Shown in pieces: positions 1 through 47,995 of a stretch of 50,800 nucleotides of DNA; within the stretch, counting starts at the first letter, position 1, and each line of letters begins with the position of its first letter. The stretch lies in the sequence record NC_047820.1. One strand, 5' to 3'. Origin of the DNA: Escherichia phage vB_EcoS_ESCO41. The notes beneath the pieces are model-generated. The model was not told the origin of the DNA, made no database searches, and worked only from the letters and a program-made list of their open reading frames with translations. The translations under genes were made by a program, and so were the position numbers.

Positions 1-100
1 TTGCAGCTATTGCAATGATTCACTTCACTATTGCGCATATAGCAATATTGCATCTATTGCAATGATGTTTTCGATTGTTGCGAATTGAGCAATGATTCAT
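1..100. repeat. iteron-like cluster of ~4 degenerate ~20-bp repeats built on the palindrome ATTGCAAT / GCAATGAT
   Basis: Direct reading: ttgcagctattgcaatgatt (1-20), ttgcgcatatagcaatattg (31-50), ctattgcaatgatg (54-67), ttgcgaattgagcaatgatt (78-97); no credible ORF. Confidence 0.5.
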
Positions 101-207
101 TGATGGGGGGAATGATGGAGTGATGGACTACCATACAAGTTGATTTTGATTCTGGCTGAGCCATTTTTTAGCCGACGCGTAATTGTGTGTAACTCATGTA
201 TAGGGCC

Positions 208-344
208 TGTATACTGTGTAACGATTTGGCATAAGCATACGCGGCATACGCATTTTTACGCATTAGTTACAATAAAATATCTATATATAACAACCCTTTA
301 TCTATATTATTATTATTATATATATCTATGTATACTGTGTAACG
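208..344. repeat. AT-rich element flanked by exact 16-bp direct repeat TGTATACTGTGTAACG (208-223, 329-344), with tandem GCATACGC (235-242, 244-251) and a (TTA)n/TATA tract; paralogous to 31036-31165
   Basis: Direct reading; about 90 bp aligns at roughly 85% with 31065-31160 (judged by eye). Confidence 0.55.
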
Positions 345-545
345 GATATCTAGGGGAGGCATCTGTCAAATTTGATAATATTGCCAACTAATATATAGGG
401 GAGCCATTCCGCCAGGATAATAGGGCCATATGCAGACAATCACCATTCAGTATGCGTTACATGATATACCGCCTACTTACATCAGGCGTAGCGAGGCCTC
501 CAGGGCAGAAATGTTTCCCGGCCTGTTTTTTACATGAGATTACTG

Positions 546-574
546 TTGACTTACGCGTTAACTCCATCCATAAT
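546..574 (+). promoter_or_regulatory. sigma70-type promoter TTGACT-N17-CATAAT upstream of the first early gene
   Basis: -35 TTGACT 546-551, 17-bp spacer, -10 CATAAT 569-574, about 40 nt before ATG 613. Confidence 0.5.
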
Positions 575-612
575 GACCTCACTTAAACGCAACAATCAAA
601 TGAGGTAGCGAG

Positions 613-1149
613 ATGGATAAGGTGACATTGGGTGATGTGATTCGTGAGATGGTCCGCCAGGCGATTAAGTCCGACAAGAAGCTATGCGTCGTTCCGGTCC
701 GCAAGATATTCAACCTGGTCAACGGGTATGATTATCCGGATGAAATCATCGACGAGGTGACGGGGGGGATAACTAGTCCAGGTCGTGAAATCGCAGGCCT
801 GAAAAGTTCATACATCTATAACACCGCAGCAAGAATGCAGGAGCTTCGCGATATTGATATGCACGTCAAGCATCGCTTTATCTGGCTGGCGTCAGGCGAG
901 GAAACGGCAGCTCGCAAGGTTGATGGCGATGGCGCGGACAAGAACCTCCTGATCCAGCTTGAGCCAGGCGCTCTTAAGCCGACCAAGCGCAAGGCTGCCG
1001 ATATTGAGAAAGAGGTAGCCACCATTGAAAGGTTCAAGGCAAGACTACTCAAGATCACGCCGAACATTATAGACCTGCAAGGCGAACAAAAAGAAGGCGC
1101 GCTTATCGCCCTGGCTCGCTACCATGAAATGATTAAGGAGACTAACTGA
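613..1149 (+). CDS. hypothetical protein (178 aa)
   Basis: Long ORF downstream of promoter; no recognised motif. Confidence 0.55.
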   Translation: MDKVTLGDVIREMVRQAIKSDKKLCVVPVRKIFNLVNGYDYPDEIIDEVTGGITSPGREIAGLKSSYIYNTAARMQELRDIDMHVKHRFIWLASGEETAARKVDGDGADKNLLIQLEPGALKPTKRKAADIEKEVATIERFKARLLKITPNIIDLQGEQKEGALIALARYHEMIKETN

Positions 1150-1673
1150 TGTTTAATTTTGACGAAGACAAACTGACTGATGAGCAGATTATGAATATTG
1201 CTATCCAGGATGGGCTACCGCCACTGCGGGTTGCAATCAATGCTAACGGGTATCGGCATGTTCAGCACCTATGGGGTCAGCCTGATGCATCTGAAGTCTA
1301 CAGAGATGAAGCGCTGGGCGTTCTGATTAAGTTGATCAGGAAGATGGCAAGGAACGGCAAGGGAGTGGTGGGTGTCAAGTCTCTATACGAAGGCGCGCGC
1401 AAGGTTAAACCGTTCGTAGGATGCTTTGATATCATGTTGCGCATCAAGGGTGGGCTCCCCGCTCTAGAGGAAATGAATCTCACGTGCCTCATTGGAGATA
1501 AGATTTATGTCCACCCGGCTATCATTGATGAGTACTGGAAACCAAACTTCAAAACTTACGAAGGTGAGTATGCTAGTAGACTACCATACCACTTACGGTA
1601 CGGTGAGGATGAGGTGGAGGCGGCGATCGAGTTCTACCGGAAAGCTAAATCACTCCTGAATGGTGAATATTAA
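1149..1673 (+). CDS. hypothetical protein; internally deleted paralog of the 527-aa P-loop ATPase at 46380..47963 (N- and C-terminal segments only)
   Basis: MFNFDEDKL..LPPLRVAINANGYR and NGKGVVGVKSLYEGARKVKPF..TCLIGDKIY match both termini of the 527-aa protein; ATGA overlap with upstream gene. Confidence 0.6.
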   Translation: MFNFDEDKLTDEQIMNIAIQDGLPPLRVAINANGYRHVQHLWGQPDASEVYRDEALGVLIKLIRKMARNGKGVVGVKSLYEGARKVKPFVGCFDIMLRIKGGLPALEEMNLTCLIGDKIYVHPAIIDEYWKPNFKTYEGEYASRLPYHLRYGEDEVEAAIEFYRKAKSLLNGEY

Positions 1674-1888
1674 TGCTTATAAAATGCGTGTATGTAAGGC
1701 AAGCAAATCAACAAAACCTTTCAGTTGTAAATGGCGGGATATACGTAGCTAAGCCAATACCTTGTTTTAATGGCTCATACTACATCAAGGTTGATGGCAG
1801 TGAGTACATAGTAAAGACGATAGGTGAAGCCCTTATGATAAAGAGTCTGGGTATCATAATGGCTAAATTCGAAATTGTTCGCAAATAG
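1673..1888 (+). CDS. hypothetical protein (71 aa)
   Basis: TAATG overlap with upstream gene; stop TAG lies inside cassette palindrome. Confidence 0.45.
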   Translation: MLIKCVYVRQANQQNLSVVNGGIYVAKPIPCFNGSYYIKVDGSEYIVKTIGEALMIKSLGIIMAKFEIVRK

Positions 1889-1928
1889 CACGAATTGCTA
1901 AACCAGTACCGCAAGGACGCGGTATAGT
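1886..1928 (+). promoter_or_regulatory. palindrome-promoter cassette: TAGCACGAATTGCTA + 22 bp + TATAGT
   Basis: Palindrome 1886-1900 overlaps stop codon; -10-like 1923-1928; leader CATCGAAACGAAACGAG 1934-1950. Confidence 0.6.
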
Positions 1929-1966
1929 TACTCCATCGAAACGAAACGAGTAATTGAGGATTTGAA

Positions 1967-2185
1967 ATGAGCAAGACAATCACGCTTGAGTGCCTTAAGA
2001 CAAACAACCCTGAGTTCCTTAAAGGTCACAAATATGTAGCAACGCTCGTTGATGGTAAGACCTGGGCCGTTAAGGGTGGGTTTAGTGATTACAAGTTCCC
2101 ACTTGATCACATACCTGGTGGAAACCTTGGTTTTGTTAGTGACTGTCGCTCAGTTAAGTTCGTGTTTGAAGTGGTAATGAAATAG
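1967..2185 (+). CDS. hypothetical protein (72 aa)
   Basis: ORF after cassette and leader; stop TAG inside next palindrome. Confidence 0.5.
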   Translation: MSKTITLECLKTNNPEFLKGHKYVATLVDGKTWAVKGGFSDYKFPLDHIPGGNLGFVSDCRSVKFVFEVVMK

Positions 2186-2225
2186 CACTTTTTGCTAAAC
2201 CTTCCGCAAGGCCATTTGATATAGT
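2183..2225 (+). promoter_or_regulatory. palindrome-promoter cassette: TAGCACTTTTTGCTA + 22 bp + TATAGT
   Basis: Palindrome 2183-2197 overlaps stop; -10-like 2220-2225 preceded by TGA. Confidence 0.6.
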
Positions 2226-2267
2226 GGCCTTGTTGAAGCAAAACAACCAATCACAGAGGATTTACAA

Positions 2268-2630
2268 ATGAAAGTTCGTTTACTTAACCCGTCAATCTAT
2301 GCAGGCATTAGCTACACCAAGCTCCACGAAAAGGAGACGAACCCGCGAGATCCTGGTTCATATCCGATCGTCGTAGAGGGTTTCTTTGATGGCACTGAAT
2401 TTAATAATACTTCAATCAAGGTTGGTGGTGACGAGCTTGATCGAGTATTCAAAAGCTATTTCAGTAGCGGAAAGCCAATGAACTCATGTTACGGTAGCGA
2501 AGCAGTTCTTGGTTGGTGGAACGATCCAGGCGAGCCTAAATCATGGGAACCTGTCGGGCCGTTCGATTACTGGAATAAGCTCAAGGCATCACGCGAAATT
2601 GGCGAGACGGTAGGGAAGGGTTACTTATGA
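2268..2630 (+). CDS. hypothetical protein (120 aa)
   Basis: ORF with RBS-like AGAGGA upstream. Confidence 0.55.
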   Translation: MKVRLLNPSIYAGISYTKLHEKETNPRDPGSYPIVVEGFFDGTEFNNTSIKVGGDELDRVFKSYFSSGKPMNSCYGSEAVLGWWNDPGEPKSWEPVGPFDYWNKLKASREIGETVGKGYL

Positions 2631-2806
2631 TTACTTTATGCATTCTGCTTTACATCCTGGGCGCAATTCCGGTTTATGCAATTGCAAAAGACGTTAGCAA
2701 TAGCGATAACAAATGGTACGACATGGTGATCGTTGCCGCTATCTGGCCCATTGCCATTGCTTTCGGGGTGGTTAATGGCATCTACCAAAAGTTGAAGGAG
2801 AAATAA
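2627..2806 (+). CDS. small hydrophobic protein (59 aa, below ORF-track cutoff)
   Basis: ATGA overlap with upstream stop; translation MITLCILLYILGAIPVYAIAK.. is membrane-like. Confidence 0.4.
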   Translation: MITLCILLYILGAIPVYAIAKDVSNSDNKWYDMVIVAAIWPIAIAFGVVNGIYQKLKEK

Positions 2807-2808
2807 TC

Positions 2809-3027
2809 ATGCAAGTCTACACTAACAGTAAAGGCATTGAGTTTTGTGCGGTAGGCGATGTTGTCCTGCGCACTGGTAGCGATGTCGGGGTTGTTAAAAT
2901 CTCACGCATCACACAGGATCAGTTGGTAAAGGGCATCCAGGCTGGAATCTTTACCTATCACTCATCGTTGACGGCTGATGATTACATCACACTTGATTCT
3001 GCGGTTCGCGTTGGGTTCATCGAATAG
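2809..3027 (+). CDS. hypothetical protein (72 aa)
   Basis: RBS GAAGGAG before ATG; stop TAG inside palindrome. Confidence 0.5.
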   Translation: MQVYTNSKGIEFCAVGDVVLRTGSDVGVVKISRITQDQLVKGIQAGIFTYHSSLTADDYITLDSAVRVGFIE

Positions 3028-3067
3028 CACTTTTTGTTAAAACTTGCTCGGAGACATTAGCTATAGT
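3025..3067 (+). promoter_or_regulatory. palindrome-promoter cassette: TAGCACTTTTTGTTA + 22 bp + TATAGT
   Basis: Palindrome 3025-3039 (G-T variant half-site), -10-like 3062-3067. Confidence 0.55.
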
Positions 3068-3108
3068 GCCTCCTGTCAAGTGAACACAAACCAACTGAGG
3101 AATCACAT

Positions 3109-3915
3109 ATGAACAGCATTAACCGTTATATCCCTGTGTCAGTGCCAACCAGCGTCAACATTCACGGTGTCGGAATGCAGGCCTGCGACGATGGGGTGTG
3201 GGTATCCTACGCGATGCATAAGCAAGAAATTGAGTCCTTACAGACACGTTTAAAGGCCTTAGAATCGACTCAAAAACATCAAATTTCTGCACCGTCGATT
3301 ATCGCTGACCATGTTGAGCAGGCAATCAAAGAAGCTGTAGGTAAGCTGGTGCACGAAGCATGTGAGCAATTGCTCAAGGATTTGCCTAAGTACAATGGCG
3401 ATCCGTGTCACAGCACTGTCGATGCGTTCGTGAATGATCTTGCGGCTGGCCCAGGTAAGACCATCATGGATGACACCTACAGCGTCGCAGGTGAATTGAC
3501 GAAGAACGCCAAGTTCACTTTCGGTAGCAATTTCGGTGAAGGCAAGGCGCTTACCATGTCAACCGCGAAAATGGAACCACGAAGCGGCGGTTACGGTTAT
3601 AGCAATCGTCACGCATGGGCGGTGGGTGAATGTGAATCAGCACGCGATCGCAAGGTGGCGGTTTGCTACCATGTTGGAGGCAATGAGTTTATCAATGGTT
3701 GCGAGTACGCGTATGAAATTGATGAATGCGAACCAGGATGTGAGCCGCGACTTATTCAAATCACGCAAGATGCCTTCTGCTCTGGATTAAAAGGTGATTA
3801 CCGTTGGGAAGCCAGGAGAATTGGTAATGTTATGAATGCCAAGGCAACGCTCGTTGACGCATACGCAATCATAAATCCTGATGGTGGCGTAGTGGCTCAG
3901 TTCTATATCAAATAG
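3109..3915 (+). CDS. hypothetical protein (268 aa), Cys-rich C-terminal half
   Basis: Long ORF; no recognised catalytic motif. Confidence 0.55.
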   Translation: MNSINRYIPVSVPTSVNIHGVGMQACDDGVWVSYAMHKQEIESLQTRLKALESTQKHQISAPSIIADHVEQAIKEAVGKLVHEACEQLLKDLPKYNGDPCHSTVDAFVNDLAAGPGKTIMDDTYSVAGELTKNAKFTFGSNFGEGKALTMSTAKMEPRSGGYGYSNRHAWAVGECESARDRKVAVCYHVGGNEFINGCEYAYEIDECEPGCEPRLIQITQDAFCSGLKGDYRWEARRIGNVMNAKATLVDAYAIINPDGGVVAQFYIK

Positions 3916-3955
3916 CACTTTTTGTTAAAAGGGGATTCATCCTGAGTGGTATAAT
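3913..3955 (+). promoter_or_regulatory. palindrome-promoter cassette: TAGCACTTTTTGTTA + 22 bp + TGGTATAAT
   Basis: Palindrome 3913-3927 overlaps stop; -10 TATAAT 3950-3955 with TG at -15/-14, inside hairpin GGGGATT..AATCCCC. Confidence 0.6.
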
Positions 3956-3988
3956 CCCCACATCAATCACACGAAAGGAAGTTAACAA

Positions 3989-4606
3989 ATGAATCAGATG
4001 TACACCATGATCAAGCATCACCTGAACACCGACGCAATCAATAAGACAGTATACTTGTTTGATTACGACGGCACTCTGTCGGACGGAACCCATCGCCTTC
4101 ATAAGCTGCCAACAAAGGATTTGCACCTTACTGAGTCATGGTCTGAGTTCAATCGACTATCAGAATATGATCAGCCTATCGAGTCAACCATTCAGGTAAT
4201 GAACAGCCTTTACAACTCCGGCGCGTTCATCATCATTCTAACAGGACGTTCAGACGAGGTGTGTGAGATTTCTACTCAGTGGCTTCATGATGCTGGAGCA
4301 AAATATAACGTTATGGTCATGCGCCAGGCTGATGACAACCGCAAGGACACCATCATCAAGGAGGAGTTTTTACGGTACATTGGCTTGCATCGCATCACGG
4401 CGGCATTTGATGACAGCCCTAGCGTAGTTGCTCACTTCCGAAGCCTCGGCATCACTACCTATCAGGTGTGTGACTATGGCGATAACGCGCACTCCGGCCT
4501 TAAGTCTCACGGCGTAGAAAAGGTTTGCGAGCACGAATTTAGCGATCCTCTACCTCCGCATGGTGTTCGCCAGTGCAAGAAATGCAATCTCGTAAGCGGT
4601 AAATAA
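3989..4606 (+). CDS. HAD-superfamily phosphatase-like protein
   Basis: FDYDGTLSDG matches the HAD DxDGT catalytic motif. Confidence 0.5.
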   Translation: MNQMYTMIKHHLNTDAINKTVYLFDYDGTLSDGTHRLHKLPTKDLHLTESWSEFNRLSEYDQPIESTIQVMNSLYNSGAFIIILTGRSDEVCEISTQWLHDAGAKYNVMVMRQADDNRKDTIIKEEFLRYIGLHRITAAFDDSPSVVAHFRSLGITTYQVCDYGDNAHSGLKSHGVEKVCEHEFSDPLPPHGVRQCKKCNLVSGK

Positions 4607-4655
4607 AACTAAACTTAACGGTCGAACATCTCGACCACTACTCAGGAATGTCAAA

Positions 4656-5273
4656 ATGTCAAAGATTATCATTCTCAACGGTCCGGCTGGTGTAGGTAAA
4701 GACACGATCGGCAACGCGCTCGCAGCGGATTACAATTGCATCCCGACCAGCTTCAAGCGTCCGATGTTTGAGATTGCCGCGTCAATCCTTGGTGTCAGGG
4801 CTTTTTCAATGTTCATCACCGCATACGACGACCGCGACCAGAAAGAGCATCCTCAGAGCTTTCTCGGTGGAAAGACCTGCCGCGAGTTCATGATCTGGAT
4901 TAGCGAAACAGTGGTCAAGCCGCTTTTTGGCAATCAGCAGTTCGGCAAATTGATGAGCGAACATATCCGTCTGTGTGATGAAGGATTCTGTTTTGTTTGC
5001 ACTGATGGCGGCTTCCCCGATGAAGTGATTCGACTCGTTGAAGATGGTCACGATGTTACCCTGGTCCGCTTGTTCATGGATGGCAAGACTTTCGCGGGAG
5101 ATAGCCGTGATTATATCCGCATCAAGGAATCGCATTTCCCTGATTACAAGAAATATAACGAACATGATGTGCATCTGGTGAATGGTGATATTGACGGCGG
5201 CGTCATAGCAGTTGTTCGCGCCTGCGGTATCCGTCCTGCAATCGACGAGTGGGCCGACGATATTCCTTGGTAA
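4656..5273 (+). CDS. P-loop nucleotide kinase, T4 gp1 (dNMP kinase)-like
   Basis: Walker A IIILNGPAGVGKDT resembles the T4 dNMP kinase N-terminus (recalled from memory). Confidence 0.55.
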   Translation: MSKIIILNGPAGVGKDTIGNALAADYNCIPTSFKRPMFEIAASILGVRAFSMFITAYDDRDQKEHPQSFLGGKTCREFMIWISETVVKPLFGNQQFGKLMSEHIRLCDEGFCFVCTDGGFPDEVIRLVEDGHDVTLVRLFMDGKTFAGDSRDYIRIKESHFPDYKKYNEHDVHLVNGDIDGGVIAVVRACGIRPAIDEWADDIPW

Positions 5274-5274
5274 A

Positions 5275-5317
5275 TAGCACGAATTGCTAAACCCGCTCCG
5301 GCGGGTTTTGTTATAGT
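5275..5317 (+). promoter_or_regulatory. palindrome-promoter cassette: TAGCACGAATTGCTA + 22 bp + TATAGT
   Basis: Palindrome 5275-5289 just after stop TAA; -10-like 5312-5317 preceded by TGT. Confidence 0.6.
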
Positions 5318-5346
5318 TAGTTCACACCAAACGACAGGAAAGCAAA

Positions 5347-5505
5347 ATGATTACTATCAACCTGTCAGACAAGCAAGCCGTCATTCTTAAGCAACTCCTG
5401 GCAACTCAGACTATGCAGTGCACAGACGATGAGTTCTCGGAGATGGTTAAAGAGGTTCGCACTCAGATCAACAATCAACAATTCGACGAAAACGAAGGGG
5501 AATAA
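5347..5505 (+). CDS. small hypothetical protein (52 aa, below ORF-track cutoff)
   Basis: ATG 5347 preceded by leader CACACCAAACGACAGGAAAG; ends TAA 5503-5505. Confidence 0.35.
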   Translation: MITINLSDKQAVILKQLLATQTMQCTDDEFSEMVKEVRTQINNQQFDENEGE

Positions 5506-5507
5506 CC

Positions 5508-5906
5508 ATGAAATTACGTTGCATCAAGATTAACGCTAATTGGGAGTCGATGATCAAAGATTACTTTCAGGTCGGTAAAGTGTATGAGGCAAAGTACGGT
5601 CGCAACATCTACATTGGCACGGTAGATGTTATTGATGATCGCGAAGGGCTTACCTGGTGCGCTATACAGAAAGGGAGCAAGTTCAACCTGAATCTTCCCA
5701 CTGGCCCAGCCGTCACTTTCGAACTTGTAACAGGTCCGCGCCGCCTGGTGGTAACTGAGAAGCGCGTAACTAACGTGTTAAACGACAAGCGTAAATTCCG
5801 CCGCATGTGCAGACAGTACGGTAAGCTTCGATTTACTGAGCCTGGGATGTTCTGCTTTATCGCCTTCGCGGCAATGAAAAAGAATGCACGCAATCACCAG
5901 CGATAG
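5508..5906 (+). CDS. hypothetical protein (132 aa), basic C-terminus
   Basis: ORF with RBS; stop TAG inside palindrome. Confidence 0.5.
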   Translation: MKLRCIKINANWESMIKDYFQVGKVYEAKYGRNIYIGTVDVIDDREGLTWCAIQKGSKFNLNLPTGPAVTFELVTGPRRLVVTEKRVTNVLNDKRKFRRMCRQYGKLRFTEPGMFCFIAFAAMKKNARNHQR

Positions 5907-5946
5907 CACTTTTTGTTAAAACTCATAATCGGGGTGACTGTATAGT
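5904..5946 (+). promoter_or_regulatory. palindrome-promoter cassette: TAGCACTTTTTGTTA + 22 bp + TATAGT
   Basis: Palindrome 5904-5918; -10-like 5941-5946; leader CATCGAAACGAACGAGG 5952-5968. Confidence 0.6.
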
Positions 5947-5976
5947 TACCCCATCGAAACGAACGAGGAAGCAGAA

Positions 5977-6189
5977 ATGAAAATTGAAATTATCGACGTG
6001 AATTATGCTACTGATGACGACTCCCTCACCTTAGAGGAGTGCGGGTTTAAATTTGGGGATGTTGTCGAGGTGTTCGGTCATTACATTGATGGCGACCTTT
6101 CAATCAGGGCCATCCGTGAAACAGAGTTTGTCACCGTTGGCGATGGGATCAGCATTAGCGAACATGAATATAAGGTAATCGAAGAATGA
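5977..6189 (+). CDS. hypothetical acidic protein (70 aa)
   Basis: ORF after cassette/leader/RBS. Confidence 0.5.
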   Translation: MKIEIIDVNYATDDDSLTLEECGFKFGDVVEVFGHYIDGDLSIRAIRETEFVTVGDGISISEHEYKVIEE

Positions 6190-6512
6190 TTTACATTCAC
6201 ACTTATGGCATTGGCAAATTTGGCAAAGAGATTCGCCGGACCGTTCACGAAACGAAGGAATTAGCAGAAGCGGCACAGAAAGTTCTCGGCGGTGAGTTCA
6301 AGGCTTACCGCGAAGCGGATGACTCGGTTGAATGCTGGCAGGTTGAGCGCATGCGTAACGTTCTGGAAAGTGAGGTGTCAGATCTTATCGATAACATGAC
6401 GAGTCACGGCCCTGGCGGACCATGGGAAGAGCCTGGCTCACCGGAATGGGATTGTGCCAAGGTTGACACAATGAACAAGATCAGCGAAATCATTGATGGG
6501 GTGTACGAATAA
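6186..6512 (+). CDS. hypothetical protein (108 aa)
   Basis: ATGA overlap with upstream gene. Confidence 0.5.
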   Translation: MIYIHTYGIGKFGKEIRRTVHETKELAEAAQKVLGGEFKAYREADDSVECWQVERMRNVLESEVSDLIDNMTSHGPGGPWEEPGSPEWDCAKVDTMNKISEIIDGVYE

Positions 6513-6685
6513 TGCTGACAATAATGATGGCTAATCTTGACCTATCATCTGATTTTAGCATTATCGCCTTCATCTTACCGATACTGCTACTACTGCCTTT
6601 CGCCTGTTACGTGGTAATAAAGGACCTGGCAGAATGGAAACGAATTGACAAAAAAATTAAACAAGCAACCTACAGGAATAAATAA
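6512..6685 (+). CDS. small membrane protein (57 aa, below ORF-track cutoff)
   Basis: TAATG overlap; hydrophobic core FSIIAFILPILLLLPFACYVV. Confidence 0.35.
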   Translation: MLTIMMANLDLSSDFSIIAFILPILLLLPFACYVVIKDLAEWKRIDKKIKQATYRNK

Positions 6686-6925
6686 ATGTTTGGATTAACC
6701 GATCCGCAGATGAACGCAGTAAAGGCCAAGGCCAAGCAATTAAACGCAGCGTATGCCACCCTAAGCAAGAAAGATCGCAAAGATGATAAGCTGGTTGCCT
6801 CAATTATTACCAAGCACCATGATGCCGTAGCGACCATTATATCGCGATCGCGTTTTATATGGATTGCAGGGTACATAGAGGGGAGGTGCGGAAAGCGTGA
6901 AAATGGGGAAAGTATCTATGAGTAA
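6686..6925 (+). CDS. hypothetical protein (79 aa)
   Basis: ORF immediately after previous stop. Confidence 0.45.
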   Translation: MFGLTDPQMNAVKAKAKQLNAAYATLSKKDRKDDKLVASIITKHHDAVATIISRSRFIWIAGYIEGRCGKRENGESIYE

Positions 6926-7112
6926 GATCAAGAAGGGTGACGTGATCAAGTGTATCGGCGCGCGCGGTTATGAGTTCTTTAATGGCTGCGAGTACACAGT
7001 GGAAAAAGTTGATTCCCAGGGATACGTTTATGTCTACAGCGACGAGGGGAACAAGGTCGCGATCGACTACCCTGTTTGCCAGACGTATGGAACTTTTAAA
7101 AAAGTTGATTGA
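6897..7112 (+). CDS. hypothetical protein; likelier start ATG 6918
   Basis: ORF-track frame; the ATG at 6918 has a GGGGAAAG RBS-like sequence. Confidence 0.4.
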   Translation: MKMGKVSMSKIKKGDVIKCIGARGYEFFNGCEYTVEKVDSQGYVYVYSDEGNKVAIDYPVCQTYGTFKKVD

Positions 7113-7137
7113 CAACCATCTCACTGACTGGTATCTT
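7109..7137 (+). promoter_or_regulatory. candidate sigma70 promoter TTGACA-N17-TATCTT upstream of tRNA genes
   Basis: -35 7109-7114, -10 7132-7137; weak -10. Confidence 0.3.
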
Positions 7138-7288
7138 TAATCTCGTAAACAGAAGAGGCCACCAAGTGGCAACGAGCGGTTCGTAATCCGCAAATTGAAA
7201 TAGCGCATCGCCAAAAGCAAAGTGTAAGTCGCAATACAATCGAGGCATTGTGAAAGCCTGCCGGATTCCGTAACCGGCCTTCATTTAA

Positions 7289-7366
7289 GCTCCGCTAGCT
7301 CAATTGGAAAGAAGCAACGACCTTCTAAGTCGTAGGTTACTGGTTCGAACCCAGTGCGGAGCGCCA
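7289..7366 (+). tRNA. tRNA-Arg (anticodon UCU)
   Basis: Acceptor GCTCCGC/GCGGAGC, anticodon stem ACGAC/GTCGT with loop CTTCTAA, T-arm ACTGG-TTCGAAC-CCAGT, encoded CCA; D-arm irregular. Confidence 0.75.
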
Positions 7367-7370
7367 ATTA

Positions 7371-7469
7371 CTCGGCGTTGCTAATATTGGCCTTAGGGTG
7401 GAGCTTATACCTCCATAAAGCAATCGACAGATAATCGATGTAATGCAGGTTCGATTCCTGCCGCCGAGA
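7371..7469 (+). tRNA. atypical tRNA-like gene (about 99 nt): anticodon-type loop CTTATAC (UAU) plus an extra 29-nt region with a second hairpin
   Basis: Acceptor CTCGGCG/CGCCGAG, T-arm GCAGG-TTCGATT-CCTGC, hairpins TGGAG-CTTATAC-CTCCA and ATCGA-CAGATAA-TCGAT; not a canonical class I or II fold. Confidence 0.4.
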
Positions 7470-7487
7470 CTAATAACGAGGTTTGAT

Positions 7488-7673
7488 ATGTTTGAGGTCA
7501 AGCTAACTATTTTGCTAATGGGGCGCACATGCGCATCTTGTAAGCAAAACTTTGAAGCAAAGGTTGAGGCCAGTAGCGCCGAAGAGGCCGTTTCAAAGGC
7601 AAAGAAAATGAGCGGAGTCGATACAACGACTCATAAATTTTTAGTTAATTATGTAAGGGGTATTTCATGCTGA
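7488..7673 (+). CDS. hypothetical protein (62 aa)
   Basis: ATG 7488 with RBS AACGAGG; the longer ORF-track start 7443 would overlap the tRNA-like gene. Confidence 0.4.
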   Translation: MFEVKLTILLMGRTCASCKQNFEAKVEASSAEEAVSKAKKMSGVDTTTHKFLVNYVRGISC

Positions 7674-7888
7674 CGTTTATTTATGGTTTTATTTTCGCTT
7701 TCGTCCTGATCATTTCGTTATCTTGCTCATGTGTAGCCAAGCTAATTAAGCGAGGTCAGTTCGCTCAAGCTCGATACGATGAGAAGAAAAAGCAGTGGCG
7801 CGTATCCGGCAAGTTTATCTCTGTGTTCAACGAGATTAACGACATTCGATCGGGGCGGAAGCCTGGGGCCATCAAATACGTTGACTGA
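7667..7888 (+). CDS. small membrane protein (73 aa)
   Basis: N-terminal hydrophobic segment FIYGFIFAFVLIISL. Confidence 0.4.
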   Translation: MLTFIYGFIFAFVLIISLSCSCVAKLIKRGQFAQARYDEKKKQWRVSGKFISVFNEINDIRSGRKPGAIKYVD

Positions 7889-7896
7889 TTCATTTA

Positions 7897-7921
7897 AGCA
7901 TCCTTTGGGGTGCTTTTTTTA
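7897..7921 (+). terminator. rho-independent terminator
   Basis: 7-bp stem AGCATCC/GGGGTGCT with G-U pair, then T7 run. Confidence 0.6.
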
Positions 7922-7932
7922 TGCCTGCAATC

Positions 7933-7941
7933 TGGTATAAT
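7933..7941 (+). promoter_or_regulatory. extended -10 element TGGTATAAT upstream of terminase genes
   Basis: Direct reading; no clear -35. Confidence 0.3.
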
Positions 7942-7970
7942 TCATTCCTATTCAACAAGGGGAAACAACT

Positions 7971-8489
7971 ATGAAAGACGAAAATTTCACCAGCCACGCG
8001 AACGAGAAGGTTCGAATCGGTAACTTCAAAGAGCTATACAATAAAAAGTATGGCGACATTGCCAACCTGAACCATCGTCACCCAATGACGCCTGAGACTG
8101 TATTCAACCTTGCGGTTAAATATTTCTCATGGGCCGAGGACCAGGCAATTAAGGCAATCGAAACGGCGAGCTTCCATGGTGTAGTTACTGAGAACCTAGT
8201 GCATAAGCCTCGCATTTTCACTTTAAACGGATTCTGCCTGTACTGCGGAGTTACAGCAAGCTCAATTCAGAGCTGGCGCGCATCACCTGGATTCGCGGAG
8301 GTAATGGAGTTCGTTGACTCTGTAATCCATGAGCAAAAATATCAGCTTGCTGCAGCCAATATCATCAATGCTGGGTTTGTAGGCAAGGAGATTGGAATCG
8401 ACAAGCCCGCCGAGGTCAACGTAAGTAATGTAGTGAATGATACTCAGACGATTGAGGATGCTGTGAAAAGCGTTCTTGATAAGATTTGA
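7971..8489 (+). CDS. putative terminase small subunit
   Basis: 172-aa ORF immediately upstream of the large terminase; assignment by position only. Confidence 0.45.
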   Translation: MKDENFTSHANEKVRIGNFKELYNKKYGDIANLNHRHPMTPETVFNLAVKYFSWAEDQAIKAIETASFHGVVTENLVHKPRIFTLNGFCLYCGVTASSIQSWRASPGFAEVMEFVDSVIHEQKYQLAAANIINAGFVGKEIGIDKPAEVNVSNVVNDTQTIEDAVKSVLDKI

Positions 8490-10186: not shown

Positions 10187-10735
10187 GTGAGATTCAGCGA
10201 TATTTTTACATACAAAAGCGGAGAGGTTTTCTGGAATGGAAGGCCAGAAAGTGATTTTAGTAAAATGAGTGCATATCACGCGTTTAATAGGATGGTTGGC
10301 AATACTGCTGGATACCTAGATAAATCAAACGGATACTGGTATGTGTGGATTACAATTGGCGGTATTGAAAAGAAAATACCACGATCACATATTGTGTGGT
10401 GTATTCACAATAATGCAGCCATCGTTCCAAAAGGGTTTGTTATTGATCATATAAACCACGTAAGAGATGATGATAGGATAGAAAACCTTGAACTTAAAAG
10501 CTATAGAGGAAACAACAGAAACCTTTCAATATCAAAAAGGAATAAAAGCGGTTGCGTAGGTGTTACATGGTATTCTCGCGATGAAATGTGGATGGCTTGC
10601 ATAATGGGTGATGACGGAAAGAACAAAAATCTTGGCAGGTATAATGACTGGTTTGATGCGGTTTGCGCAAGGAAGAGCGCGGAGCATGAGATTGGGTATC
10701 ACACAAACCACGGCAAGGATAGCGAGAATTGCTAA
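10187..10735 (+). CDS. HNH homing endonuclease (GTG start)
   Basis: IDHINHVRDDDRIENLEL matches the HNH/AP2-type motif; paralogous to 12823 and 40179 genes. Confidence 0.75.
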   Translation: MRFSDIFTYKSGEVFWNGRPESDFSKMSAYHAFNRMVGNTAGYLDKSNGYWYVWITIGGIEKKIPRSHIVWCIHNNAAIVPKGFVIDHINHVRDDDRIENLELKSYRGNNRNLSISKRNKSGCVGVTWYSRDEMWMACIMGDDGKNKNLGRYNDWFDAVCARKSAEHEIGYHTNHGKDSENC

Positions 10736-10748
10736 ACTCATGTATAAT

Positions 10749-10778
10749 GGCTAGGCTAACAACCTAGCCATTTTTATT
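10749..10778 (+). terminator. rho-independent terminator
   Basis: GGCTAGG-ctaacaa-CCTAGCC hairpin followed by ATTTTTATTT. Confidence 0.5.
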
Positions 10779-10790
10779 TGGAGAAAACAG

Positions 10791-30168: not shown

Positions 30169-30211
30169 ATAGTATCGCATCCTTGCGATCAGTGTTTAGC
30201 AATTAGTGCTA
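30169..30211 (-). promoter_or_regulatory. palindrome-promoter cassette (minus): TAGCACTAATTGCTA + 22 bp + TACTAT
   Basis: Palindrome (plus 30197-30211) overlaps the Rha-like stop; leader CCATCGAAACGAAACG at plus 30149-30164. Confidence 0.6.
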
Positions 30212-30926: not shown

Positions 30927-30969
30927 AATATACCCAGATATAGCCAGTTGTCTTTAGCAATTCGTGCCA
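30927..30969 (-). promoter_or_regulatory. palindrome-promoter cassette (minus): TGGCACGAATTGCTA + 22 bp + TATATT
   Basis: Plus 30955-30969 palindrome with one half-site mismatch; -10 at plus 30927-30932. Confidence 0.5.
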
Positions 30970-31427: not shown

Positions 31428-32468
31428 ATGACCAAACCACTGTTTCAATATTTCACTTCAGAAGAAATGAGCAACGACTTTTATCACAGTAAAGATGAAT
31501 GGACTGCCGAGTATGTCTCTGGTTCATCGTTAAGCAAGATTCACAGCACATGCCCTGCGGCGTGGAAGTTCGAAATGAACTCTACGACTAAGGCTCTTGT
31601 TTTCGGCACGCAGTCACACACAAACTTTGAGAGTAAGGCTCTTTTTGAACGTCAATATCGCCGCGCACCGAAAGAAAGCGAGATTGAAAACGTGATAACA
31701 AGCCAGGCGGCATTGGCAGCTAAGTTAAAATCATTTGGCCTGACTGGTACAAGCGGAAAGCAATATCCAGAGTTGATTAAAATGATGGTTGATTGCGGCG
31801 AAGACCTTAACGTCATGTGGCTGATTGACATGATCGCACAATGTCAGGCGTGGGCCGACGGAGTGGAACTGGTTAAGGCTGAGGACTACGACGCCTGCGT
31901 CAGTATGCGCCAGGTTCTTGAGATGATTCCTGAACATAACGCCTGCATGAACAGTGAGACTGCATTCCGTGAGTATTCATTGTTTGGCGTGATTTGTGGC
32001 GTTAAAGTTAAGGTGCGACTTGACCATGTTGACATCGTTAAGGATCTAGAGGCAATACGGCGCATGGGCTACGATCCTGAGATTCACCCTGAAATTGTCG
32101 TCATCACTGATTACAAAACGACAATGAGCGCTAACCCGACCGAGTTCCCTCGCCTGGCGTTCAATCATGGCTACTACCTCAAGATGGCATTGCAGCGTGA
32201 CTTGTTCGTTAAATGCTTTGAAGAAACGCGACCTGTGGTTGTGCGCTTGCTGGCCCAGGAGAAGAAAGAACCTTACTTGCCTATGGCGTACCGGATGAGC
32301 GGCGATCAGCTTAAGATTGGGCGTGCTCAGTATATGAGCGTTATTCATACTTTCTCAATGTGCGAAGCGAATGACGTATGGCCTTCATACAGCAACGGCG
32401 AGCCAGAGATTGAGCTTGAGACTCCTGATTGGATTAAAAAGCAGTTCAATCACATTTTGGAATCGTAG
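31428..32468 (+). CDS. PD-(D/E)xK-family recombination exonuclease-like protein; start ATG 31428
   Basis: Motif IVVITDYKTT with acidic residues upstream; directly upstream of Erf-like and SSB genes; ORF-track start 31374 lies inside the promoter. Confidence 0.5.
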   Translation: MTKPLFQYFTSEEMSNDFYHSKDEWTAEYVSGSSLSKIHSTCPAAWKFEMNSTTKALVFGTQSHTNFESKALFERQYRRAPKESEIENVITSQAALAAKLKSFGLTGTSGKQYPELIKMMVDCGEDLNVMWLIDMIAQCQAWADGVELVKAEDYDACVSMRQVLEMIPEHNACMNSETAFREYSLFGVICGVKVKVRLDHVDIVKDLEAIRRMGYDPEIHPEIVVITDYKTTMSANPTEFPRLAFNHGYYLKMALQRDLFVKCFEETRPVVVRLLAQEKKEPYLPMAYRMSGDQLKIGRAQYMSVIHTFSMCEANDVWPSYSNGEPEIELETPDWIKKQFNHILES

Positions 32469-32507
32469 CACTTTTTGCTAAACACGAATGCGGTGATTTG
32501 CTATAAT
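32466..32507 (+). promoter_or_regulatory. palindrome-promoter cassette: TAGCACTTTTTGCTA + 21 bp + TGCTATAAT
   Basis: Palindrome 32466-32480 overlaps stop; extended -10 32499-32507 within hairpin CGGTGA..TCACCG. Confidence 0.6.
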
Positions 32508-32544
32508 CACCGTAAATCAAACGAAGTAAACAAAGGTATATATA

Positions 32545-36148: not shown

Positions 36149-36163
36149 TAGCACGAATTGCTA
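36149..36163. promoter_or_regulatory. isolated TAGCACGAATTGCTA palindrome 26 bp upstream of the tail-fibre start, with no -10 at the usual distance
   Basis: Direct reading. Confidence 0.4.
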
Positions 36164-36189: not shown

Positions 36190-36212
36190 TAAAAAAACCC
36201 GCCGTAGCGGGT
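36190..36212 (-). terminator. rho-independent terminator (minus strand) after the primase-like gene
   Basis: ACCCGC-tacg-GCGGGT followed by T7 on the minus strand. Confidence 0.65.
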
Positions 36213-37174: not shown

Positions 37175-37204
37175 AAAAAAGGTTGCACCAATTATGGCAC
37201 AACC
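37175..37204 (-). terminator. hairpin plus T-run (minus strand) that also carries the -10 of a degenerate cassette
   Basis: GGTTGCACC..GGCACAACC hairpin with plus-strand A6 (minus T6) tract. Confidence 0.45.
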
Positions 37205-37233
37205 TTAATTTTACTCTTTAGCTTTTCGTGCCA
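37191..37233 (-). promoter_or_regulatory. degenerate palindrome-promoter cassette (minus): TGGCACGAAAAGCTA + 22 bp + CATAAT
   Basis: Same spacing as canonical cassettes; -10 lies in the hairpin loop. Confidence 0.4.
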
Positions 37234-37465: not shown

Positions 37466-37508
37466 ATCATACCTCATCAATGAGAAATGTCTTTAGCTTT
37501 TCGTGCCG
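37466..37508 (-). promoter_or_regulatory. degenerate palindrome-promoter cassette embedded in the 3' end of the HTH gene: CGGCACGAAAAGCTA + 22 bp + TATGAT
   Basis: Plus 37494-37508 palindrome-like, -10 at plus 37466-37471, then leader and gene 37235..37423. Confidence 0.45.
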
Positions 37509-37959
37509 CATCGTTAGCGGCCTTAATCTTGCGCCATGAACGACACTCTGGCTTAGTGGCTAGTTCAGCCTCGGTGACGACGCGCAGCATGTGACGCTTT
37601 TTGCAACGCAGCGTTAGCGGCTTACCGTTCCCGTCGAATTGCAGATCCGGTCGGCAGAACGTAGCGCGGAATCCCTCTCCAGTTCGTTTGTATCGGTTAT
37701 GAGCCAGCTGAGCGCCACGGGCCGACATCATGCCGCGCTTAAACCATTCCTCAACGGCCTGGCGACTAACTTTCAGTTGCTTTGCGATATTTGCCTTCGT
37801 TCCGTAGAAGTCGAGAACCATTTCCAGTCGCGCCCGAAGCCCCGCCTTTACTTCATCTTTTAAAACGTAGTAACCTGAAGGTCGTTTTCGTTGCTTTTTG
37901 TCTTCAGTGCGGACTGTTCCGTTGTTACCGTTAATAGTTCGCTTGTCAACTGCTTTCAT
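37477..37959 (-). CDS. basic DNA-binding protein with helix-turn-helix (candidate transcription regulator)
   Basis: HTH-like TKANIAKQLKVSRQAVEEWFKRG; Lys/Arg-rich; divergent from the helicase gene with a palindrome in between. Confidence 0.5.
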   Translation of the reverse strand: MKAVDKRTINGNNGTVRTEDKKQRKRPSGYYVLKDEVKAGLRARLEMVLDFYGTKANIAKQLKVSRQAVEEWFKRGMMSARGAQLAHNRYKRTGEGFRATFCRPDLQFDGNGKPLTLRCKKRHMLRVVTEAELATKPECRSWRKIKAANDAARKAKDISH

Positions 37960-37972
37960 TTTATCACCTCAA

Positions 37973-38015
37973 TAGCATTTTTTGTTAAAAGTCATTACGA
38001 TTTGATGGTAGTATT
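37973..38015 (+). promoter_or_regulatory. palindrome-promoter cassette: TAGCATTTTTTGTTA + 21-22 bp + TAGTAT
   Basis: Palindrome 37973-37987 sits 14 bp upstream of the divergent HTH gene start and upstream of the helicase gene. Confidence 0.5.
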
Positions 38016-38060
38016 GTACCAAATTAAACGCTACAAGACAATTTTTATAGGAATTTAGAT

Positions 38061-39369: not shown

Positions 39370-40182
39370 TTGAGAAAGATTGGTAGCTTAACTCTCATGA
39401 TTCAGCTTCTTGGGCGAGGCATGCGAATTCTAAAGAAAAAGCATATAGAAATGGGGATGAAAAAAGATGATCACCTTGTTCTAGACTTCGCCGGCGCACT
39501 TGACGATATGGCCGAACTTTACTTTGACCCAATCATTGAAGAAATTCAGGCTGAGAAGTTCAAGTCCTCAAGGAAAGGTGGTGATGAGGTCCGGCAGTGC
39601 CCGCAGTGTGGATATGAGAACTCACCATTTGCTCGACGCTGTAGCAACAAGATTGATGGAAAGCGCTGTGAGCACTTTTTCAGCTTTACGGTTTGTGAAG
39701 ATATTACTGACCCACAAACAAAGTCCGTCATCAAGAAAGGTTGCGGTACTCGCAACGACATAGCAGCAAAGGTTTGTCGTGAATGCGGAGAAATGCTTAA
39801 AGACCCTAATGCTAATCTAACCGGTAAGATGTATCGTCGTGGTGATTACCTCCGAGTTTATGATTTTCAAGTTGGTTTAAGTAAGAACCAGACTGGAATA
39901 GTTGTTAAATACAACATCATGGCGCATAACGGAGAGCGGTTTAATGCTTGGGAGTTCTTTAATCCAGAATCAGACCATCGAGTTTGCAGCGTGCTTTGGA
40001 AAAATTTCTGCCTATCCCATATTGAGAATCGCACAGAAGCAGCACGAATTGCTAAACTTCGCAGCGCAAAAATGATTATGATGAACGTAGATAAATTCCG
40101 TGCTCCTGTGCAGGTAACTCACAGAAAGAATGGCAAAGGAAAGGACATAATAGCTTTTAAGAATTTTGGAGAATTATTATGA
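39370..40182 (+). CDS. SF2 helicase, C-terminal part (motif VI plus Cys-rich zinc-finger-like region); possibly a pseudogene fragment
   Basis: QLLGRGMR helicase motif VI; CPQCG..RRCSNK..CEHF and CGTRND..CRECG; frame continuous with upstream ORF if one repeat copy is removed. Confidence 0.55.
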   Translation: MRKIGSLTLMIQLLGRGMRILKKKHIEMGMKKDDHLVLDFAGALDDMAELYFDPIIEEIQAEKFKSSRKGGDEVRQCPQCGYENSPFARRCSNKIDGKRCEHFFSFTVCEDITDPQTKSVIKKGCGTRNDIAAKVCRECGEMLKDPNANLTGKMYRRGDYLRVYDFQVGLSKNQTGIVVKYNIMAHNGERFNAWEFFNPESDHRVCSVLWKNFCLSHIENRTEAARIAKLRSAKMIMMNVDKFRAPVQVTHRKNGKGKDIIAFKNFGELL

Positions 40183-40655: not shown

Positions 40656-41071
40656 ATATTACAGATAAGGTTGATTACATTGAGTTTTACCCGGGCCCTG
40701 TTAAATCATGCCCAAAGGAGGATGACGAACAAATATTTTGCTCTGATTGGGTTAAGTATAACTATCCAGAGATGGTATTTTTCCACTGCGTGAATGAGGG
40801 TAAGAAAACCATTGGACAAGCAAGAAAGGACCAGGCTAAAGGATTGCTTAAGGGGGTTTCGGACTGCTTATTCCTGATGCCTGAATCGCTGCGTGGCAAA
40901 TACCCTTTCGGTGCCATAGAGCTAAAGAGAGCAGGAAAAACCCAAGCAAGCCCAGTCAGTGACGAACAGAAGTCATTCCTTAAAAGCGTAAGGGAATCAG
41001 GAGGTTTTGCTGGGGTTGCCTACGGGCGTGAAGGTTTTCTTGCGGCATTTAAAGAGATGATTTCAAAATAG
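40652..41071 (+). CDS. VRR-NUC-like nuclease domain protein (putative)
   Basis: PD-(D/E)xK-like pattern around ..FLMPE..GAIELKRAGK..; low-certainty motif reading. Confidence 0.4.
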   Translation: MNITDKVDYIEFYPGPVKSCPKEDDEQIFCSDWVKYNYPEMVFFHCVNEGKKTIGQARKDQAKGLLKGVSDCLFLMPESLRGKYPFGAIELKRAGKTQASPVSDEQKSFLKSVRESGGFAGVAYGREGFLAAFKEMISK

Positions 41072-41111
41072 CACGAATTGATAAAGACTAATCGGTGAGG
41101 TGGTGTATTAT
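41069..41111 (+). promoter_or_regulatory. palindrome-promoter cassette: TAGCACGAATTGATA + 22 bp + TATTAT
   Basis: Palindrome 41069-41083 overlaps stop; -10-like 41106-41111 in loop of GAGGTG..CACCTC hairpin; leader CATCGAAACGAAG. Confidence 0.55.
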
Positions 41112-41150
41112 CACCTCATCGAAACGAAGTAACCAACCAAGGAAATCAAA

Positions 41151-42153: not shown

Positions 42154-42385
42154 GATGGAAAAGTTGCAATTTGATTTAACTGAGCAGGGGCAATTCCTTT
42201 TATTTCGCGGCCTTGTTTGCACGGCTCTTACAATGGCTGGGTTCAAGGGTGATGCTTGGGTATTCTCAAATCTTGACATGTCATTTGAAGAGGTCCAAGG
42301 CACTCCATTTGAATCATGGTCAAGATCAATAGCAAAAGATCTCGCAGACTATAAGCGCGATTGCCCTGAAGATTTTAACCAATAG
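42146..42385 (+). CDS. hypothetical protein (79 aa)
   Basis: Overlaps methylase stop; own stop inside palindrome. Confidence 0.45.
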   Translation: MFKMEKLQFDLTEQGQFLLFRGLVCTALTMAGFKGDAWVFSNLDMSFEEVQGTPFESWSRSIAKDLADYKRDCPEDFNQ

Positions 42386-42425
42386 CACGAATTGCTAAAC
42401 ATACCCGCCGCCGTGCGGGTATACT
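42383..42425 (+). promoter_or_regulatory. palindrome-promoter cassette: TAGCACGAATTGCTA + 22 bp + TATACT
   Basis: Palindrome 42383-42397; -10-like 42420-42425; leader CACACCAAAGAAACGAGG. Confidence 0.55.
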
Positions 42426-47963: not shown

Positions 47964-47995
47964 CTTATTCTCTCTCGTTGTTATCGATGGGTATA

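Follow-up and report, generated by a model that had tools for sequence, protein, structure and literature searches.

Two described systems come close to the element analyzed here, an intergenic promoter cassette of Escherichia phage vB_EcoS_ESCO41 (NC_047820.1) that carries a hairpin between a conserved upstream box and a predicted transcription start; the window, that is the whole stretch analyzed, comprises 50,800 nucleotides (nt). The first is the '21-nt direct repeat' of phage TLS, aaATAGCACnnnTTGnTAAAA, which occurs in 21 copies about 76 nt before start codons and has also been noted in T1, Rtp and Rogue1 (PMC11447400). Its function was left open, a stoperator, an enhancer site or an UP element being suggested; TLS encodes no RNA polymerase or sigma factor, only three sigma-70-like promoters were found in it, and the terminators listed do not overlap the repeats (PMC11447400). 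The second comprises the PeSL (promoter-early stem-loop) and PmSL (promoter-middle stem-loop) cassettes of the T4-like phages RB49/phi1, PST and nt-1 (PMC2839356; PMC4122927). PeSL stem-loops lie between the promoter boxes or over the -10 and were proposed to be terminators or attenuators of upstream transcription; one of them lowered lacZ expression to the same degree as the rrnB T1 terminator did, and genes are shuffled by way of these cassettes (PMC2839356; PMC4122927). Two parts of what follows are already published: the box, as the TLS repeat, and the principle of promoter plus stem-loop, as PeSL.

The window represents a T1-like coliphage (Drexlerviridae), whose circularly permuted genome it covers completely. 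Its nearest relatives are the Nouzillyvirus phages BUCT-XGG-1 and XT34 (about 88% identity), and its end and start are contiguous, both being colinear with positions 39506-39886 of phage JulesPiccard. A Hamming scan of the window revealed about 18 good copies of one intergenic cassette, each on the strand of its downstream gene. The copies share the box consensus aaATAGCAC-nnn-TTGCTAAAA, with GAA, TTT or TAA as the central triplet, followed by a spacer of 22 base pairs (bp; range 21-23), the hexamer TATAnT, a C-rich discriminator of 6 nt, a predicted start at cA, the sequence TCGAAACGAA (leader cATCGAAACGAA), a Shine-Dalgarno (SD) sequence and the ATG. The intergenic gap measures about 75 nt, and each short gap between early genes carries one promoter cassette. 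The box is the TLS repeat: the consensus aaATAGCACnnnTTGnTAAAA, the orientation with transcription and the distance of about 76 nt to the start codon all agree, and the central-triplet classes TTT and GAA are common to both, whereas the third class is TAA in the window and AAA in TLS. A -10 at a fixed distance of 22 bp, a conserved start and leader and the intervening hairpins are absent from the TLS paper and are reported here. A literature search that left out the genome papers of T1 and Rtp, which may describe it earlier, found no description of the whole cassette.

The cassette in front of the polynucleotide kinase gene (pnk) consists of the following parts, the hairpin classes being defined below:

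3910-3930, + strand: upstream box aaATAGCACTTTTTGTTAAAA (aaatagcactttttgttaaaa), equal to the 21-nt direct repeat of phage TLS
3931-3959, + strand: class B hairpin enclosing the -10; GGGGATT (3931-3937) pairs with AATCCCC (3953-3959) around a 15-nt loop
3947-3955, + strand: extended -10, TGgTATAAT, its hexamer at 3950-3955 being 22 bp past TTGTTA
3961-3991, + strand: predicted start (C at -1, A at +1; the A is 3962), A/C-rich leader, SD sequence AAGGAA and ATG at 3989

The box holds the pseudo-palindrome TAGCA-N5-TGTTA, centered near -42, and the upstream gene 3109-3915 has the TAG of the box (3913-3915) as its stop; the ATG of pnk follows 76 nt past the T of TAGCAC. The hairpin has 7 pairs and a predicted energy of -13.4 kcal/mol (z -2.5 against shuffles). 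TATAAT lies half in its loop and half in its 3' arm, and the loop holds the TG-TAT of the extended -10. Compared with an intrinsic terminator the 7 pairs would suffice, but the loop has 15 nt, and no U-tract follows (the next letters, 3960-3967, are ACATCAAT). Across orthologues the stem is invariant and the changes are confined to the loop. The cassette including its spacer (3906-3985) is recognizable in 162 phage records, T1 among them, with flanks that are mostly unalignable.

The promoter part of the cassette is rigid. Of the 17 core cassettes of the window, 13 have 22 bp between TTGCTA and the hexamer, and the others have 21 or 23 bp. A larger set of 269 unique cassettes, consisting of the window copies and of T1-like contigs from a pattern scan of IMG/VR, and sharing ancestry rather than being phylogenetically independent, has exactly 22 bp in 218. 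The 22-bp spacer given by the first-pass annotation of the window is right. Within this set G is found at -14 in 81%, TGn in 41% and T at -17 in 66% of the cassettes, C at -1 in 69% and A at +1 in 82%, the predicted start A lying 7 nt past the hexamer; A at -11 and T at -7 were imposed by the cassette filter, to which their 100% is due. With its extended features the hexamer resembles a genuine sigma-70 -10. A consensus -35/-10 scan found no -35 at 16-18 bp in the cassettes apart from a few incidental matches to weak hexamers, and canonical promoters were not in excess. Nothing is conserved upstream of the box in the alignment of the unique cassettes.

With PeSL the T1-like cassette has in common a host RNA polymerase promoter combined with a stem-loop of variable sequence, mostly between the boxes or over the -10, a proposed role as terminator or attenuator, and an association with small genes of unknown function; a link with insertions and deletions, as in PeSL, may exist as well. 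The intergenic placement is that of PeSL as well, with a stop codon in or just before the box and the ATG about 76 nt further on. Unlike PeSL it belongs to siphoviruses of the Drexlerviridae, has a 21-nt pseudo-palindromic box 22 bp from the -10 in place of a -35 at 17 bp, carries a conserved transcribed leader and has stems that are mostly not polyG/polyC, its promoter and terminator activities being predicted ones. On the best reading the T1-like cassette would work like PeSL with a different upstream box. The remark of the first-pass annotation that hairpin-embedded elements are unusual for promoters of the host RNA polymerase was overstated.

Hairpins are strongly enriched in the cassettes. 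The 40 nt after TTGCTA fold with a mean of -11.6 kcal/mol, compared to -5.6 for random 40-mers of the window (Mann-Whitney P=1e-7). In the larger set at least 7 consecutive pairs are formed by 65% of the cassettes and by 16% of the shuffles, and an inverted repeat score of at least 7 is reached by 57.6% of the 269 unique cassettes, as against 10% of background windows from coding sequence. Four hairpins that had been named beforehand (3931-3959, 32489-32514, 41092-41121 and 37179-37206) are all present where they were placed; their folds are more stable than those of shuffles, at -13.4 to -17.6 kcal/mol and z between -2.5 and -6.1. Stems have 6-14 pairs and loops 4-15 nt. An Rfam search of the whole window returned the single tRNA-Arg gene of this genome as the sole match, and no structured-RNA family fits the cassette hairpins.

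The position of the hairpins relative to the promoter is bimodal. In class A the 3' arm reaches the first bases of the hexamer or stops just short of them, at least 12 nt before +1; in class B it ends around -1/+1, most often exactly at -1, and the hairpin encloses the -10. The discriminator is richer in GC in class B (3.83 of 6 nt compared to 2.44, P=3e-15), which probably affects promoter kinetics as well. The first-pass annotation had placed the -10 in or next to the hairpin loop in many cassettes. In the window this applies to the 7 cassettes in which the -10 is enclosed; in 8 others a hairpin confined to the spacer ends 0-7 nt before the -10, and in 3 no hairpin is convincing. Many hairpin registers occur, the commonest single diagonal accounting for 26% of cassettes. 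Seven hairpins have been replaced outright among orthologues, including switches between class A and class B at one locus. With wholly different hairpins at orthologous loci and with such class switches, the feature that is kept is the presence of a hairpin somewhere between box and +1 and not a geometry centered on the -10; the functional weight that had been given to the -10 in the loop falls away, the hairpins abutting the -10 as often as they enclose it.

The hairpins are selected as RNA transcribed in the direction of the cassette. Our stem calling treats G·T and A·C mismatches alike. The internal stem mismatches of 128 unique hairpins comprised 29 G·T, 1 A·C and 7 others (binomial P=6e-8), whereas inverted repeats that occur by chance in the sense strand of this genome's coding DNA showed 37 G·T to 44 A·C. 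The sense-strand RNA is the more stable one in 185 cassettes and the antisense RNA in 81; at 41092-41121 the values are -17.6 and -11.6 kcal/mol. Sixteen of the 24 four-base loops of class A are UNCG or GNRA. The first-pass annotation had left it open whether the element acts as RNA, as DNA or as both, and these numbers, together with the compensatory changes described next, speak for RNA. A role of the hairpin as a DNA operator is unlikely, for its sequence differs from cassette to cassette and therefore offers no single shared protein site; and every G·T pair is an A·C mismatch on the other strand, which makes a cruciform unlikely.

Orthologous cassettes support this picture by covariation. 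Orthologue groups were built from the flanks alone, which kept the hairpins from influencing group membership; this replaced a single linkage by spacer similarity, which had chained unrelated cassettes. We found 9 compensatory double changes from at least 5 independent events, for example GCCGGA/TCCGGC to GGCGCA/TGCGCC and CGGGG/CCCCG to CGGTG/CACCG, as well as 27 one-sided changes after which the two bases still pair. Substitutions affect 9.2% of stem positions and 16.6% of unpaired spacer positions (Fisher P=4e-5). A lack of compensatory changes in relatives, joined with a lack of processing or termination at these hairpins, had been named beforehand as the result that would speak against the first-pass idea; compensatory changes do occur.

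The hairpins are also tied to the gene that precedes them. In 107 of 168 cassettes the TAG of the box serves as stop codon of the upstream gene; otherwise this codon lies 1-13 nt before it, mostly as TAA at 3-4 nt. Upstream context was called by a codon-usage score and with the annotated JulesPiccard genome, calls by nearest stop or longest frame being noisy owing to spurious antisense open reading frames. Cassettes behind a co-directional gene fold with a mean of -11.8 kcal/mol (n=169) and divergent ones with -6.4 (n=14, from only about 3-4 independent loci; P=4e-5). Of the 17 core cassettes of the window, the three that fold most weakly (30969 on the - strand, 37973 on the + strand and 50780 on the - strand) are exactly the three divergent ones, a ranking that has a chance of 1 in 680. 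JulesPiccard has strong hairpins solely behind co-directional genes. Vibrio phage Vc1, whose regulator is 48% identical to that of the window, has the same cassette, with hairpins of both classes behind genes and no hairpin at the divergent cassette between regulator and helicase. The hairpins lie upstream of the predicted start, so their RNA must derive from upstream transcription.

On balance we believe that the cassette is a composite of a promoter and a sense-RNA hairpin, the latter belonging to the 3' end of the preceding transcription unit and being packed into the promoter of the next. We read the hairpins as attenuators and/or structures protecting the 3' end of the upstream unit, and not as full stops. 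RNA polymerase coming from upstream would transcribe the box and then the hairpin. A class A hairpin, GC-rich, often with a UUCG or GNRA loop and with the U/A-rich -10 behind it, would probably attenuate read-through. Such hairpins are similar to Rho-independent terminators of E. coli in their GC-rich stem of 6-9 bp, their UUCG/GNRA loops, the A-run before the stem (TAAAA of the box) and the U/A-rich tail; they differ in that this tail is the -10 hexamer UAUAnU and not a U-run. A class B hairpin such as 3931-3959, which uses the discriminator as its 3' arm, would more probably protect or delimit the upstream mRNA as a stable structure at its 3' end, weak attenuation being the alternative. The new transcript would then begin 7 nt past the hexamer, for which the box is probably required, and the box may be held by a Cro-like protein of the phage at a class II-like position. 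The hairpins would sit inside the next promoter because no other sequence-free space is available, and a -10 in the loop would be a by-product of this packing.

If this is true, the repeat, the -10 at 22 bp and the packed hairpin would explain how about 20 transcription units are delimited in T1-like phages, a common group that is used for therapy and engineering and whose promoters are essentially unannotated, and why standard predictors of promoters and terminators miss these units. The cassettes would be very compact natural parts combining promoter and insulator. They would also carry the idea behind PeSL, that of mobile promoter/terminator cassettes, beyond T4-like myoviruses into a siphovirus family unrelated to them, which suggests a general way in which phages punctuate tightly packed genes.

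Several observations weigh against this reading. Only three cassette hairpins (5289-5308, 42401-42422 and 37179-37206) passed the scan for canonical terminators, and canonical terminators are used at operon ends, for example at 33688, 44654, 45841/45860, 36197-36212 and 7896. Tails of class B hairpins contain a mean of 1.1 T in 8 nt, the criterion for a U-tract being at least 5; those of class A contain 3.8. The T content after class A stems (2.54) does not exceed that of cassettes lacking a hairpin (2.61, P=0.58), so there is no sign of selection for a U-tract. Comparisons between orthologues gave 41 pairs broken and 36 kept, the broken count being inflated because the most stable member of each group served as reference. 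Weak hairpins occur in 7 of the 16 co-directional cassettes of JulesPiccard, and in one lineage the divergent helicase cassette contains a perfect hairpin of 9 bp. To this must be added the common ancestry of the 269 cassettes and the small number of divergent loci. Finally, we found no transcript data for T1-like phages in the literature searched, and starts, 3' ends and termination are predicted.

It is possible, though rather unlikely, that the hairpins are instead processing or insulating elements of RNA which steer an endonuclease such as RNase E to the A/C-rich leader or isolate the initiation region; read-through and primary transcripts would then carry the same leader. The sense-strand RNA signature applies here too, class B hairpins mostly have the end of their 3' arm exactly at -1, with the conserved leader cATCGAAACGAA behind it, and there is neither a U-tract nor a sign of selection for one. 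Stems of 6-14 bp are too short for RNase III, which needs a nearly continuous helix of about 20 bp, so that processing by this enzyme, one of the possibilities raised earlier, is unlikely. Class A hairpins end at least 12 nt before +1 yet swap with class B hairpins at orthologous loci, and this exchange argues against a function that depends on exact position.

An improbable, more speculative extension of our composite of promoter and 3'-end hairpin would be a unit for stopping and restarting. The hairpin that ends one transcript would lie inside a factor-dependent promoter without a -35, the halted or released RNA polymerase would re-initiate at the next -10 without leaving the DNA, and the Cro-like helix-turn-helix (HTH) protein of the phage, bound to the box, would decide at about 20 units whether transcription resumes. 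If so, the same nucleotides of class B would set the stability of the upstream mRNA's 3' end and, by way of the GC-rich discriminator, the kinetics of the promoter.

We consider it quite doubtful that the inverted repeats are chiefly recombination substrates that move gene cassettes, a role proposed for PeSL in modular shuffling, with a secondary role in RNA. Such a function would agree with the conservation of 3906-3985 in 162 phage records, most with unaligned flanks, with the finding that PeSL crossovers map in or beside the stem-loop (PMC2839356), and with an insertion in BUCT-XGG-1, where 457 bp (2480-2936 of that phage) with one extra gene of 150 amino acids lie exactly between the leader of the cassette with its TAG at 3913 and the start codon of pnk (window 3978-3989). 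It would leave unexplained the strand bias of G·U pairs, the tetraloops, the compensatory changes and the divergent cassettes lacking a hairpin, and homology would be provided by the conserved box and not by the variable hairpin. Another replaced block has its left breakpoint (window ~2615) away from any cassette. In XT34 a homing endonuclease gene is inserted farther downstream.

Promoters in the form of DNA hairpins occur for the virion RNA polymerase of phage N4; they have a conserved sequence, a 3-nt loop and a dedicated polymerase. In the cassette, too, an inverted repeat able to form a hairpin overlaps a promoter element; within class B repeats the AT-rich -10 takes the central place, and the 22-bp spacing exceeds that of a -35/-10 promoter, so one could imagine that a repeat extruded by supercoiling exposes a single-stranded -10 or alters the distance between box and -10, thereby tuning or enabling initiation. 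We regard this as very improbable. Unlike the N4 type, the hairpin sequences vary, the loops have 4-15 nt (those of 10-15 nt extrude poorly), T1-like phages encode neither an RNA polymerase nor a sigma factor (as stated for TLS, PMC11447400), and only one strand pairs well: with 29 G·T and 1 A·C the complementary strand is left mismatched, which disfavors a cruciform. UUCG-type loops stabilize RNA and not DNA, half of the hairpins exclude the -10 and their registers vary, and hairpins are missing exactly where there is no upstream transcript, yet those promoters must fire.

That the hairpins stabilize the 5' ends of RNAs starting just past the box, the box itself being the promoter and TATAnT part of the RNA, is hardly credible: the sense-strand RNA signature would be equally compatible, and the box is the most conserved part of the cassette and superficially resembles sigma-54 and Mot-box elements, but TATAnT at fixed spacing with G at -14 and a CA start 7 nt on is the pattern of a sigma-70 -10, the sigma-54 GG-to-GC spacing is 8 and not 10, nothing is conserved upstream of the box, and hairpins missing from divergent cassettes are not expected of a role in the 5' untranslated region.

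Returning to the box of the composite promoter, position G3 of its pseudo-palindrome is invariant (269/269), and its partner C13 is T in 76 of the 269 cassettes (28%), giving G·T; the G-T variants of the half-sites to which the earlier annotation had drawn attention are real. The box is not a true dyad, since C6 faces T10 and G3 is fixed while C13 varies; position 2 is A in 261 of 269. As an RNA stem the palindrome is weak, with -3.7 kcal/mol, or -1.3 with G·U, and it would lie under the terminating ribosome. Its center is 30 nt before the first base of the hexamer, at -42. Class II activators such as CRP or FNR bind at -41.5, and Mor and C of phage Mu at -43.5. The cassette resembles such promoters in its dyad-like site near -42, its rigid -10 spacing and its lack of a -35 hexamer, and in terms of geometry the rigid distance between box and -10 and the center at -42 are compatible with a class II-type factor site. 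Some activator-independent activity is suggested by the extended -10 features.

Two other identities of the box were rejected. A sigma-54 promoter (TGGCAC-N5-TTGC) requires a separation of 10 between GG and GC, which is 8 in TAGCAC-N3-TTGC. The likeness to the T4 Mot box (TGCTT) is a resemblance only, the box ending at -35 and the Mot box being centered at -30.

One gene of the window encodes a candidate for the factor:

37477-37959, - strand: 160-amino acid Cro-like HTH protein, putatively binding the box

This protein matches phrog_2856 (E=2e-83) and, below threshold, Pfam P22_Cro. Its predicted structure is an all-alpha Cro-like core with a predicted local distance difference test (pLDDT) score of 88, aligning to the Cro proteins of Xfaso1 and N15 with a target-normalised template modeling (TM) score of about 0.7 and weak E-values. 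Homologues are mostly found in T1-like phage genomes and contigs of 45-52 kb, with few records labelled bacterial. The gene is divergent from the helicase cassette; its start codon is 14 nt from the box at 37973-37987, the box lies in its leader, and it has a conventional promoter of its own at 38013-38041 (- strand; TTGTCT-17-TACAAT with TG). This layout would allow autoregulation. By fold and position the Cro-like protein might be the factor that binds the box.

Two further places in the window recall the box. A perfect box, TAGCACGAATTGCTA, at 36149-36163 has no -10 at 22 bp either way; it lies directly before the SD sequence of an 804-amino acid minus-strand gene (tail fibre region), beside the terminator 36197-36212, and may be a binding site with a non-promoter use. 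The non-coding junction of the two divergent early arms, about 600 bp at window 1-600, contains a 47-nt tandem repeat with TTGCA-N5-TGCAA palindromes, whose 5+5+5 geometry is like that of the cassette box, and several further direct and inverted repeats. This could be an origin, packaging or regulatory region.

Conservation continues into the predicted transcripts. Their first ~12 nt, cATCGAAACGAA, are A/C-rich and poor in G and U (3962-3975, 1935-1950, 5953-5965 and 41118-41130), and this leader extends to Vibrio phage Vc1 as AACGAAACGAA. It might enhance translation, govern stability or signal a pause. Many short hairpins also have in common a loop of the nnGGAT type at a fixed place, -8 to -5 from the hexamer (CGCAAGGATGCG, GCCACGGATGGC, GACATGGATGTC); examples are 30176-30183 (- strand) in the window and the JulesPiccard cassettes at 2175, 14298, 31605 and 32446. 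Together with the T at -17 (66%) this hints at a contact in the spacer that does not depend on the hairpin.

The other cassettes of the window are as follows:

1886-1928, + strand: class A hairpin 1906-1925, hexamer TATAGT 1923-1928; the box TAG is the stop of gene 1673-1888
2183-2238, + strand: class B hairpin with core CAAGGCCA/TGGCCTTG, TATAGT 2220-2225 in the loop
3025-3081, + strand: class B hairpin 3042-3081 around TATAGT 3062-3067
5275-5317, + strand: class A hairpin 5290-5307 (CCCGC-tccg-GCGGG; 5289-5308 in the terminator scan), followed by TTTTGTTATAGT
5904-5952, + strand: class B hairpin 5931-5952 (GGGGTGACT/AGTTACCCC, one G·T pair) around TATAGT
32466-32514, + strand: class B hairpin 32489-32514 around TATAAT 32502-32507; -13.7 kcal/mol, z -5.4
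37973-38014, + strand: helicase-gene cassette in divergent context (upstream gene on the other strand); weak fold of -6.6 kcal/mol
41069-41122, + strand: class B hairpin 41092-41122 with 13-14 pairs, three of them G·U; -17.6 kcal/mol, z -6.1
42383-42425, + strand: class A hairpin 42401-42422 (ATACCCGC/GCGGGTAT) abutting TATACT, tail ACTTCTTTC; passes the terminator scan
44383-44426, + strand: class A hairpin 44403-44424 (TATAGCGCC-GAAA-GGCGCTATA), its 3' arm overlapping TATATT
30169-30211, - strand: class A hairpin 30174-30189 (ATCGCA-AGGA-TGCGAT), ending at the first base of TACTAT
30927-30969, - strand: divergent context, box in its TGGCAC variant; hairpin not significant (z +1.0)
37179-37233, - strand: degenerate box TGGCACGAAAAGCTAAA; 12-pair hairpin 37179-37206 with CATAAT at the loop; -17.2 kcal/mol, z -5.4
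47993-48039, - strand: class A hairpin ACCCGC-TTCG-GCGGGT abutting TATATT
48635-48677, - strand: class A hairpin 48647-48662 (GCCC-TTCG-GGGC), TTTTCC before TATATT
50228-50270, - strand: class A hairpin 50233-50249 (GCCTCA/TGAGGC), ending at the C of CATAAT
50737-50780, - strand: divergent context (the window end joins the start); no significant hairpin (z -0.3)

The hairpin 5289-5308 is the sole cassette hairpin within 1-8000 that passes the canonical terminator scan. The one at 37179-37206, followed by TTTTATT, is a canonical terminator and the holder of a -10 at once.

In JulesPiccard (Braunvirinae) cassettes are also found within the structural (late) block, at 2175, 9906, 14298 and 15559, whereas the structural block of the window contains only a degenerate copy at 10720, so the share of the genome that is driven by cassettes differs between subfamilies. 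This degenerate copy (10720-10780), between the gene of a 182-amino acid protein and the portal gene, reads TAGCGAGAATTGCTAAA with a TATAAT only 8 nt off; a canonical terminator comes next (GGCTAGG...CCTAGCC followed by ATTTTTATTT), its loop at the place expected for the -10. It resembles the 'degraded PeSLs' of T4-like phages.

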